Shown here: in pieces, positions 9,401 to 12,400 of the stretch
Layout: every line of letters starts with the position of its first letter
Numbering within the stretch: the first letter of the stretch is position 1
Source of the DNA: Escherichia coli
GTDB taxonomy: Bacteria; Pseudomonadota; Gammaproteobacteria; Enterobacterales; Enterobacteriaceae
NCBI RefSeq assembly: GCF_045037415.1
Contig: NZ_CP173438.1
Direction: 5' to 3' (one strand)
DNA: 64,000 nt
Position numbers: made by a program

Positions 9401-12400
9401 TCGCTTCTTCTTTGGTGGCCGCTTTGCGACCGAGGAAGATGTTCTCCGCGCCCAGTTTGAACAGGTTAGCACTGGAATCGTCAAAGCTGTCTTTCAGACT
9501 GTCTTTCACTTTCACTTCGTTTTCAGTATGGCGCTGGGCAGCAACCAGACGTTCGGTCAGGCTGGTGTACAGGCCGCTGTCGAGGAAGTTGGTCAGCGAA
9601 ATATGCTGTGCCTGCGGAACCTGGCGCATAGCGCGTTCGGTCAGGTCACGGTGAGTGATGACCAGGTCCACATCTGGCGGCAGGTTGTTGATCGCGCTGT
9701 TAGTGACCGAAATCTGCGACAGACCTGCATCCTGAATTTTCTTACGCAGCACGCCTGCACCCATCGCACTGGAACCCATACCGGCATCACAGGCAACGAT
9801 GATTTTACGGACGTGGCTCAGGTCGTTAGTCACATCGCCTGCAGACAGCGGAGACGCACCTTTAGACTCAGCTTTCATTTCCTGAACGCGACGTGCAGCA
9901 GCTTCAATATCATCTTCTTCTTTCACTTTGCTGGTTTTCAGCAGAATGGCAGAGACAACGAAGGAAACTGCCATCGCCGCACACACACCCGCGATGTTAG
10001 CGAAGTAAGCACCTTTTGGCGTCATCGCCAGTACAGCAAGGATAGAACCCGGAGATGCCGGAGAAACCAGCCCACCGCCCAGGATAGTCAGCGTGAATAC
10101 GCCAGTCATACCGCCGAGGATAACGGCCAGAATCAGACGCGGATTCATCAGCACATACGGGAAGTAGATTTCGTGGATACCCCCCAGGAAGTGGATGATT
10201 GCCGCACCGCCCGCAGACTGTTTAGCGCTACCACGACCAAAGAACATGTACGCCAGCAGCACGCCCATACCTGGACCTGGGTTAGCTTCAATCAGGAAGA
10301 AGATGGATTTACCCAGTTCATGGGACTGCTGAATACCCAGCGGCGAGAAGATACCGTGGTTAATGGCGTTGTTGAGGAACAGGATTTTCGCCGGTTCAAC
10401 AAAGATAGACGCCAGCGGCAGCATGTCATGGACAACCATGAAGTTAACGCCCGCCGCCAGCATTTTGGACAGGGCTTCAACAATCGGGCCAATGCCGAGG
10501 AATGCCAGAATAGCGAGGATCATCCCGATGATGCCTGCGGAGAAGTTATTCACCAGCATCTCAAAACCGGATTTGATCTTACCGTCTACCCAGCGGTCGA
10601 AGTGCTTAATGCACCAGCCGCCCAGCGGACCTGCAATCATAGAGCCGAGGAACATCGGCATGTCTGCGCCGACGATAACGCCCATGGTGGTAATGGCACC
10701 GACTACGCCGCCACGTTCGCCGCCAACCAGCTTACCACCGGTATAACCGATCAGCAGCGGCAGGAGATAAGTGATCATCGGCCCGACCAGCTTCGCCAGC
10801 GTTTCGTTCGGTAACCACCCTGTTGGAATAAATAACGCGGTGATGATACCCCACGCGATAAACGCGCCGATATTTGGCATCACCATGTTGCTGAGGAAAC
10901 GACCAAAGCTTTGCACTTTGATCTTAATATCGGATGACATAAAAACACCCCTTCTTATGTTTGCTGTCGCGCAGGCTGGAAGCCCGAGGTTTTTTGTTAA
11001 TGTGGCGGCAGAGGTAGCCGGACCTTGTAGATACTGCGAAATCTGGCACTGAATCGGTTAACTGTCCAGTCGGCGGCCTTTTGTGTGATATCAGTCACAT
11101 AAATGTAGGGGGTAGAGAGGTAATTGACGTGATGCTCATCACAAAATGCTTGTGTAAAAAAGCAACAAGGCGGCGATTTTCGCTAAAAATGGCATTTAAA
11201 TGTGAGTAATGTCACATTTTTGTTTTGATGGTTTGTTGAATCTTTGTGATCTGAATCACAAGATATTTTCTTACGGCGTTCACCTGATGTGATCTACAGC
11301 ATGTTATGCCTTCGTCATGAAATCGTTATGTAACTAAGCAACTCATCACCTCTTAAAATTATTCTTTGGTGTTATGGCGAGAATCGCGAACCCGGATTAT
11401 TGTCAAAATATCAGCCTGACTCCCTTCTGGCTGCCAGCCAAAAAACAACACTGATAAACGTGAATCCGAGGCAGATATGTTTCTAAACTATTTCGCGTTG
11501 GGAGTGCTGATCTTCGTCTTTCTGGTGATTTTTTATGGAATCATCGCGATACATGACATCCCTTATCTGATTGCCAAAAAGCGCAACCATCCCCATGCCG
11601 ACGCTATTCATACGGCGGGCTGGGTGAGCCTGTTTACTCTACATGTTATCTGGCCGTTCCTGTGGATCTGGGCGACGCTCTATCAACCGGAGCGCGGCTG
11701 GGGCATGCAGTCACATGTTGCGTCGCAAGAGAAAGCGACTGACCCGGAAATCGCCGCACTTTCTGACCGAATTTCCCGGCTGGAGCATCAACTCGCCGCC
11801 GAGAAAAAGACTGACTATTCCACGTTTCCGGAGATCTAAATATGGATCTATTGATTGTTTTAACTTACGTGGCGCTGGCGTGGGCGGTCTTTAAAATCTT
11901 CCGCATTCCGGTAAATCAGTGGACGCTGGCGACGGCGGCGCTGGGAGGCGTGTTTCTGGTGAGTGGTTTGATCTTGTTGATGAACTACAACCACCCTTAC
12001 ACTTTTACCGCGCAAAAGGCAGTGATAGCGATCCCCATCACGCCACAGGTGACGGGAATTGTTACTGAAGTCACCGACAAAAATAATCAGCTTATTCAGA
12101 AGGGCGAGGTGCTTTTTAAGCTCGAGCCGGTTCGTTACCAGGCGCGAGTTGACAGACTTCAGGCAGACCTGATGACGGCGACGCATAATATAAAGACGCT
12201 GCGCGCGCAACTCACTGAAGCGCAGGCCAACACCACCCAGGTTTCAGCGGAGCGCGACCGTCTGTTTAAAAATTATCAACGTTATCTGAAAGGCAGCCAG
12301 GCGGCGGTGAATCCGTTCTCGGAACGTGACATCGACGATGCGCGGCAAAATTTCCTCGCGCAGGATGCGCTGGTGAAAGGCTCGGTGGCGGAGCAGGCGC

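Follow-up and report, generated by a model that had tools for sequence, protein, structure and literature searches.

The intergenic spacer between mtlA and yibI in Escherichia coli contig NZ_CP173438.1 (RefSeq assembly GCF_045037415.1) is almost certainly the operator-promoter of the mannitol operon mtlADR, comprising five sites for cyclic AMP (cAMP)-CRP and a class III CRP-dependent promoter. The spacer lies in a stretch of 64,000 nucleotides, referred to here as the window, and all coordinates are those of the window. The array is already known and has been described in detail, its mechanism having been worked out very recently, and it holds nothing surprising to a specialist. The value of the present analysis lies in annotation: five sites are recorded instead of three, and the transcription start site (TSS) and promoter are given in window coordinates. 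The spacer and its CRP sites are listed below, with site centres also given relative to the mtlA TSS.

10941-11476 (536 bp), mtlA/yibI intergenic spacer, between mtlA (minus strand) and yibI (plus strand)
11084-11099, unstranded, CRP5, TGTGATATCAGTCACA; exact core; centre 11091.5 (-58.5); promoter-proximal and class-I-like
11128-11143, unstranded, CRP4, CGTGATGCTCATCACA; CGTGA-N6-TCACA, 9/10 core; centre 11135.5 (-102.5); 44 bp from CRP5
11201-11216, unstranded, CRP3, TGTGAGTAATGTCACA; exact core with perfect AAA/TTT flanks; centre 11208.5 (-175.5)
11245-11260, unstranded, CRP2, TGTGATCTGAATCACA; exact core; centre 11252.5 (-219.5); 44 bp from CRP3
11288-11303, unstranded, CRP1, TGTGATCTACAGCATG; 7/10 core; centre 11295.5 (-262.5); 43 bp from CRP2

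CRP sites were scored on the ten core positions of the 16-bp dyad TGTGA-N6-TCACA and compared with the 22-bp consensus AAATGTGATCTAGATCACATTT. Exact cores occur three times in the whole 64-kb window against an expected 0.06, and none of 100 shuffled sequences reached three. Every core in the window with at least nine of ten matches (n=4) falls within a single 177-bp stretch upstream of mtlA. The five sites match the 22-bp consensus at 12 to 17 positions each, and CRP3 is the best match of the window (17/22). The weakest core is that of CRP1, which combines a perfect left half, TGTGATCTA, with a right half reading GCATG. The initial annotation had reported exact palindromes at 11084-11099 and 11245-11260, both of which are present at those coordinates. 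Its inventory was nevertheless too short, as it overlooked the third exact site at 11201-11216 and did not count the 9/10 site; the third, half-matching copy that it mentioned is probably CRP1.

From CRP5 to CRP1 the centres are spaced 44, 73, 44 and 43 bp apart. In the published E. coli mtl operator, CRP1 to CRP5 are centred at -262.5, -219.5, -175.5, -102.5 and -58.5 with spacings of 43, 44, 73 and 44 bp, and the core counts are 10/10 for CRP2 and CRP3 and 7/10 for CRP1 (Lee et al., 2026, NAR gkag751, PMC13421365). The spacings and these core counts are the same in the window. The five-site layout of mtlADR goes back to Ramseier and Saier (1995, Microbiology 141:1901). RefSeq annotation places mtlR-mtlD-mtlA on one side of the spacer and yibI-yibH on the other. 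The spacer occurs in 5404 of 5426 complete E. coli genomes, and several E. coli chromosomes carry it with 100% identity. Relative to K-12 it carries 11 substitutions in 536 bp, none of them in a core position and four of them in the N6 segments of CRP5, CRP4 and CRP3. The MtlR protein encoded in the window is identical to that of K-12, including R167 and L178.

Binding of CRP to this region has been documented in vitro and in vivo. In electrophoretic mobility shift assays (EMSA), CRP binds a fragment from -287 to -33, and sub-fragments of it, in a cAMP-dependent manner (Lee et al., 2026). In genomic SELEX (systematic evolution of ligands by exponential enrichment) for CRP, the yibI/mtlA spacer accounted for 38 clones and ranked second in abundance among the clone classes. 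Chromatin immunoprecipitation sequencing (ChIP-seq) of CRP in enterotoxigenic E. coli (ETEC) H10407 gave two peaks here: one lists CRP2 and CRP1, and under the other CRP5 and CRP4 appear as reverse complements, the CRP5 entry with one spacer difference. The initial annotation suggested that the palindromes reflect the multi-site CRP architecture known for the mannitol promoter, and the identical published centres and spacings bear this out. The mapped sites coincide with the palindromes rather than lying elsewhere, and the ETEC H10407 peaks list these very sequences.

Genetic work has assigned unequal roles to the five sites. Transcription of mtl strictly requires CRP, and chromosomal knock-out of CRP2, CRP4 or CRP5 abolishes both expression and growth on mannitol, while loss of CRP3 brings a slight drop in expression and CRP1, a normally unoccupied site, is dispensable (Lee et al., 2026). 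The same study, with EMSA on CRP, MtlR and HPr, describes a mode of repression that depends on spacing. MtlR has no DNA-binding domain, and it gives a supershift only on DNA with two bound CRP dimers whose sites are separated by 43-46 bp (optimum 44-45 bp). Neither the 73-bp CRP3-4 pair nor the malK operator is bound until its spacing is changed to 44 bp. CRP4-CRP5 is an MtlR docking pair and CRP2-CRP3 the preferred upstream platform. Residues R167 and L178 of MtlR contact CRP near activating region 2 (AR2), and the R167E and L178A mutants lose repression. In the presence of mannitol, the dephosphorylated mannitol enzyme II (EII-Mtl) holds MtlR captive at the membrane; dephospho-HPr competes for MtlR, restoring repression (Lee et al., 2026). 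In the window, CRP4-5 and CRP2-3 at 44 bp and CRP1-2 at 43 bp lie within the docking range, and CRP3-4 retains the non-binding gap of 73 bp.

The spacer differs from K-12 only outside the cores, and the window encodes an identical MtlR; the published K-12 mechanism should therefore transfer unchanged to this strain. The operon mtlADR would be transcribed leftward (minus strand) from about 11033, with CRP5 at -58.5 contacting RNA polymerase. Activation would also need CRP4 and CRP2 and, less strongly, CRP3, probably in an architectural role, and CRP1 would be weak and dispensable. Centre spacings of 43-44 bp (CRP4-5 and CRP2-3, with CRP1-2 as an alternative) would orient two CRP dimers at the right relative angle for an MtlR dimer to bridge them on the DNA and block their contacts with RNA polymerase. 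When glucose is present, dephospho-HPr would bring MtlR back to the operator. Binding, spacing dependence and mutant phenotypes in this scheme come from the experiments of others; the present analysis contributes sequence identity, non-randomness and conserved geometry. A further observation concerns a long-term stationary-phase lineage of E. coli in which a 1-bp insertion in the mtlA/yibI intergenic region, of unstated position, became fixed (PMC7858067). Since MtlR docking depends on spacing at the level of 1 bp, this insertion could alter mtl repression.

Two features map to the promoter itself.

11033-11068, minus strand, putative mtlA core promoter; TSS at 11033 from the published site numbering, hexamers read from the sequence
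11048-11061, plus strand, Cra (FruR)-like operator, ACTGAATCGGTTAA; between the -10 and -35 elements (-15 to -28)

The site centres follow the published numbering, which puts the mtlA TSS at 11033 on the minus strand. The hexamers that probably serve it are a -35 element TGGACA (11068-11063) and a weak -10 element CAGATT (11045-11040), separated by a 17-bp spacer and positioned exactly at -35 and -12. Both fall within invariant blocks of the spacer alignment A1. A consensus scan of 10850-11560 for sigma-70 promoters and terminators found no promoter-like site on the yibI side, but it missed the real mtlA promoter too, and its one match per list is the level of shuffled sequence. The mtlA promoter went undetected because its -10 element is too weak. 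The sequence ACTGAATCGGTTAA matches the Cra consensus RSTGAAWC.SNTHHW, and its TGAATCG block is almost invariant in alignment A1. Cra and Fis are reported repressors of the mtl promoter, and 11048-11061 is a candidate Cra site.

The spacer was also considered for other functions. An Rfam scan of 10700-11700 at E<=1 returned no RNA family, and hence no known small RNA or riboswitch in the spacer. A TTG-initiated open reading frame of 42 amino acids (11081-11209, plus strand) overlaps CRP5 to CRP3; it is presumably a spurious, mechanical call.

Conservation of the array was assessed by scanning one genome from each of about 100,000 species for pairs of perfect cores at spacings of 43-46 bp, a pattern whose estimated chance frequency is about one match per 298 Gb. 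At least 120 loci were returned. Among the matches listed, to which the locus and operator counts here and below refer, the N-terminus of an mtlA homologue adjoins the pair in 63 of 120 loci. These 63 loci hold 65 pairs, 62 of them at 44 bp and three at 43 bp. Spacings at the loci without mtlA are spread over 43, 44, 45 and 46 bp (10, 22, 10 and 15 loci, respectively), and these loci belong mostly to phyla without CRP, to tandem repeats, or to truncated loci that retain yibIH. The second pair and the 73-bp gap were not selected for, yet in 44 distinct Enterobacterales operators both are kept to the base pair; in two of the 44 the gap is 72 or 74 bp, and CRP1 at 43 bp is often kept as well. The distance from the CRP5 centre to the mtlA ATG is 148.5-154.5 bp in most of these operators. 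Genera with the conserved array include Enterobacter, Klebsiella, Citrobacter, Kosakonia, Cedecea, Pantoea, Pectobacterium, Brenneria, Serratia and Budvicia. Pasteurellaceae and Orbaceae have a shorter array of two or three perfect sites at spacings of 44 bp (and 40 bp). This cross-species pattern independently supports selection on the 44-bp geometry at the level of the base pair. It also suggests that two perfect sites at 44 bp are an almost diagnostic marker of the mtl operator in Enterobacterales, Pasteurellaceae and Orbaceae.

Several matches of the scan proved to be of another kind. An unclassified gammaproteobacterial metagenome-assembled genome (MAG) carries two perfect cores exactly 44 bp apart (locus L075, 9038-9097); this pair lies upstream of genes for cytochrome c and for DsbC/thioredoxin-like proteins, the 12 kb of the locus contain no mtl genes, and the pair was set aside as unrelated. 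Matches in Tannerella, Treponema and other phyla without CRP were likewise rejected as tandem repeats or chance, their spacings being spread over 43-46 bp. In MAGs of Tannerella and Prevotellaceae (L046, L047, L048, L062 and others), arrays of TGTGA...TCACA with a 23-bp period yield overlapping 46-bp matches, and these look like tandem repeats unrelated to CRP.

No observation contradicts the reading of the spacer as the mtlADR operator-promoter, and four caveats attach to it. The TSS coordinate 11033 and the hexamers are arithmetic from published centres, and the S1 mapping of the mtlA TSS is old. The canonical class I position is -61.5, from which CRP5 (-58.5) deviates by 3 bp. The genome scan required one perfect pair, which makes its sample a biased one that is silent on species with imperfect pairs.

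The alternative that survives best, though improbable, is that spacing is not the sole determinant and that short sequence blocks within the spacers act as extra functional elements, needed in remote activation or in the repression complex. The blocks concerned are the following.

11232-11236, minus strand, ACAAA (mtlA-sense); between CRP2 and CRP3, its midpoint 18.5 bp from the CRP2 centre on the promoter-proximal side
11264-11269, AAAATA (mtlA-sense); on the flank of CRP2 opposite to ACAAA
about 11108-11112, C-run at the centre of the CRP4-CRP5 spacer
11152-11166, unstranded, Fis-like/A-tract element, GTGTAAAAAAGCAAC; A-tract at 11156-11161 inside a G-N13-C frame within the 73-bp CRP4-CRP3 gap

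Among the matches listed, the 44 operators, which come from several Enterobacterales families, share a few short non-core blocks at fixed positions with at least 70-90% conservation, and the neighbouring positions vary without constraint. For ACAAA, which keeps one fixed position in an otherwise free CRP2-CRP3 spacer, the conservation is at least 90%. In the 73-bp gap, G11152, A11158-11161 and C11166 are invariant in alignment A1 and the T-tract is conserved in the 44 operators; the element 11152-11166 is a candidate Fis site. Forms that might be imagined for such blocks are a contact beside CRP2 for the C-terminal domain of the RNA polymerase alpha subunit (alpha-CTD), similar to an UP element, a Fis site, or a bend. 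The CAP-alphaCTD-DNA structure that Benoff and co-workers described in 2002 is said to place alpha-CTD on an A-rich minor groove about 19 bp from the centre of the CAP site, an offset that the position of ACAAA, 18.5 bp from the CRP2 centre, would fit. The published spacing-only model does not account for the conserved blocks, and it comes with no explanation of why the far-upstream CRP2 is essential (Lee et al., 2026). If ACAAA were an alpha-CTD contact, the essentiality of CRP2 would be explained, and the mtl operator would be read by sequence as well as by spacing.

Other evidence tells against a role of the blocks. MtlR binds the malK scaffold and a shortened CRP3-4 fragment, both with arbitrary spacers, so the blocks are dispensable for docking in vitro (Lee et al., 2026). 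The spacers of Pasteurellaceae and Orbaceae are without the blocks, and since the operators are phylogenetically related, part of the conservation is inherited. Because an arbitrary spacer supports MtlR docking, the blocks, if functional, would more likely serve activation or architecture. They are on balance unlikely to be functional DNA elements, and the related possibility that the array co-regulates yibIH where yibIH abuts it is equally doubtful.

The genes on either side of the array are the following.

9027-10940, minus strand, mtlA, PTS (phosphotransferase system) enzyme IICBA-Mtl; first gene of the regulated operon, with its ATG side at 10940
7559-8707, minus strand, mtlD, mtl operon
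6972-7559, minus strand, mtlR, mtl operon
11477-11839, plus strand, yibI (DUF3302), divergent from mtlA
11842-12978, plus strand, yibH (HlyD-type), 3' of yibI

Bidirectional control would mean that CRP at the distal sites CRP1 and CRP2, possibly with docked MtlR, activates or represses the divergent yibIH in addition to mtlADR. Measured from the yibI start, the CRP1 and CRP2 centres lie at 181.5 and 224.5 bp, respectively. In the ETEC ChIP-seq table the peak over CRP2 and CRP1 is attributed to yibI, by proximity only, and the SELEX authors regarded both flanking genes as downstream of the site. A search of the literature on yibI, yibH and CRP found assignments based on proximity only and no functional test, and yibI is never mentioned by Lee et al. 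(2026). The yibI promoter region has no consensus sigma-70 promoter, as is the case for activator-dependent promoters. In a promoter trap with uropathogenic E. coli (UPEC) UTI89, a urine-induced yibI insert (5.6-fold) beginning 329 bp 5' of the ATG covers CRP1 to CRP3; however, a second urine-selected yibI clone begins 144 bp 5' of the ATG (about 11333) and contains no CRP site. Judging from this CRP-free 144-bp clone, the yibI promoter should therefore lie in 11333-11476, with the strong CRP sites more than 80 bp upstream of that segment.

The comparative data also speak against control of yibIH. Among the matches listed, 49 mtlA-adjacent loci have 1.5 kb of flank or more; 12 of them have yibI as the neighbour, and in the other 37 the array is equally conserved. 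At the loci that do adjoin yibI, CRP2 lies anywhere from 121.5 to 354.5 bp from the yibI ATG, in contrast to the near-constant distance to the mtlA ATG. The array is thus kept with or without yibI and is fixed relative to the mtlA ATG, which argues that it is constrained by mtlA and not by yibI. A modulation of yibI by CRP is possible, but the comparative data do not support it, and both this and the wider case of bidirectional control must be considered unlikely.

The yibI-proximal half of the spacer aligns poorly in alignment A1 except for the block TGTTATGGCGA(G/A)AA at 11370-11383, which reads TGTTATGGCGAGAA in the window and is the sole block of 11333-11476 conserved across genera. It resembles an extended -10 element. 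The sequence TAAAAT at 11354-11359 was rejected as a yibI -10 element for want of conservation, since position 11354 is A in K-12 and alignment A1 shows the block to vary. The yibIH hexamers printed in Shimada (2014), TATACA-18-TATAAT, are absent from the spacer and duplicate the next row of that table, and they were disregarded.

The remaining explanation, that the palindromes are chance matches or are bound by another CRP/FNR-family or CytR-type factor instead of CRP, is barely conceivable and effectively refuted: it draws on nothing beyond the general point that consensus matches by themselves do not prove binding, and against it stand the three exact cores where 0.06 were expected, the invariance of the cores over dozens of genera in which N6 segments and spacers vary, and the published cAMP-dependent binding of CRP by EMSA, SELEX and ChIP.

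Elsewhere around the operon, the window differs from K-12 in larger features. The yibH/yibF junction (12979-13048) leads here directly from yibH to yibF-selA-selB. K-12 has an RhsA-associated block beside yibH (yibU, yibV, yibW, yibS, yibG and more), and the window strain is without that Rhs element at this position. The mtlA-mtlD intergenic region (8708-9026) is 319 bp long, compared with 229 bp in K-12, and holds two copies of a sequence like repetitive extragenic palindromic (REP) elements (TGCCGGATGCGGCGTAAAC... at 8798 and 8900) with a flanking inverted repeat, an arrangement suggestive of an additional REP unit in the window strain.

Read as the mtlADR operator-promoter, the array is best compared with the same locus of K-12, where the cores, the 44/73/44/43 spacings, the flanking genes and MtlR are identical and the differences are those between strains (11 non-core substitutions in the spacer). 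Three other systems share part of its design. The malEp-malKp region (Vidal-Ingigliardi and Raibaud, 1991) likewise groups several adjacent CRP sites between divergent genes and is activated through a higher-order nucleoprotein complex. Both of its divergent promoters have been proven to be targets, with MalT as a co-activator, whereas at mtl the mtlA side alone is proven; the central sites are 34 bp apart, and MtlR binds them only if they are stretched to 44 bp. Another example is found in CytR-CRP at deoP2, where a repressor also contacts two DNA-bound CRP dimers in an anti-activation mechanism. CytR, however, has its own DNA-binding domain and operator and acts at many promoters, whereas MtlR has neither and reads the geometry of the CRP pair alone. 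In the mtl operator, a regulator without a DNA-binding domain gains promoter specificity purely from the geometry of two CRP dimers. Finally, the pap system, with its phase-dependent CRP activation, resembles mtl in requiring a CRP site more than 200 bp from the TSS (-215, compared with -219.5 for CRP2), but it combines a single remote site with Lrp and PapI, whereas mtl relies on a phased array of four to five sites.

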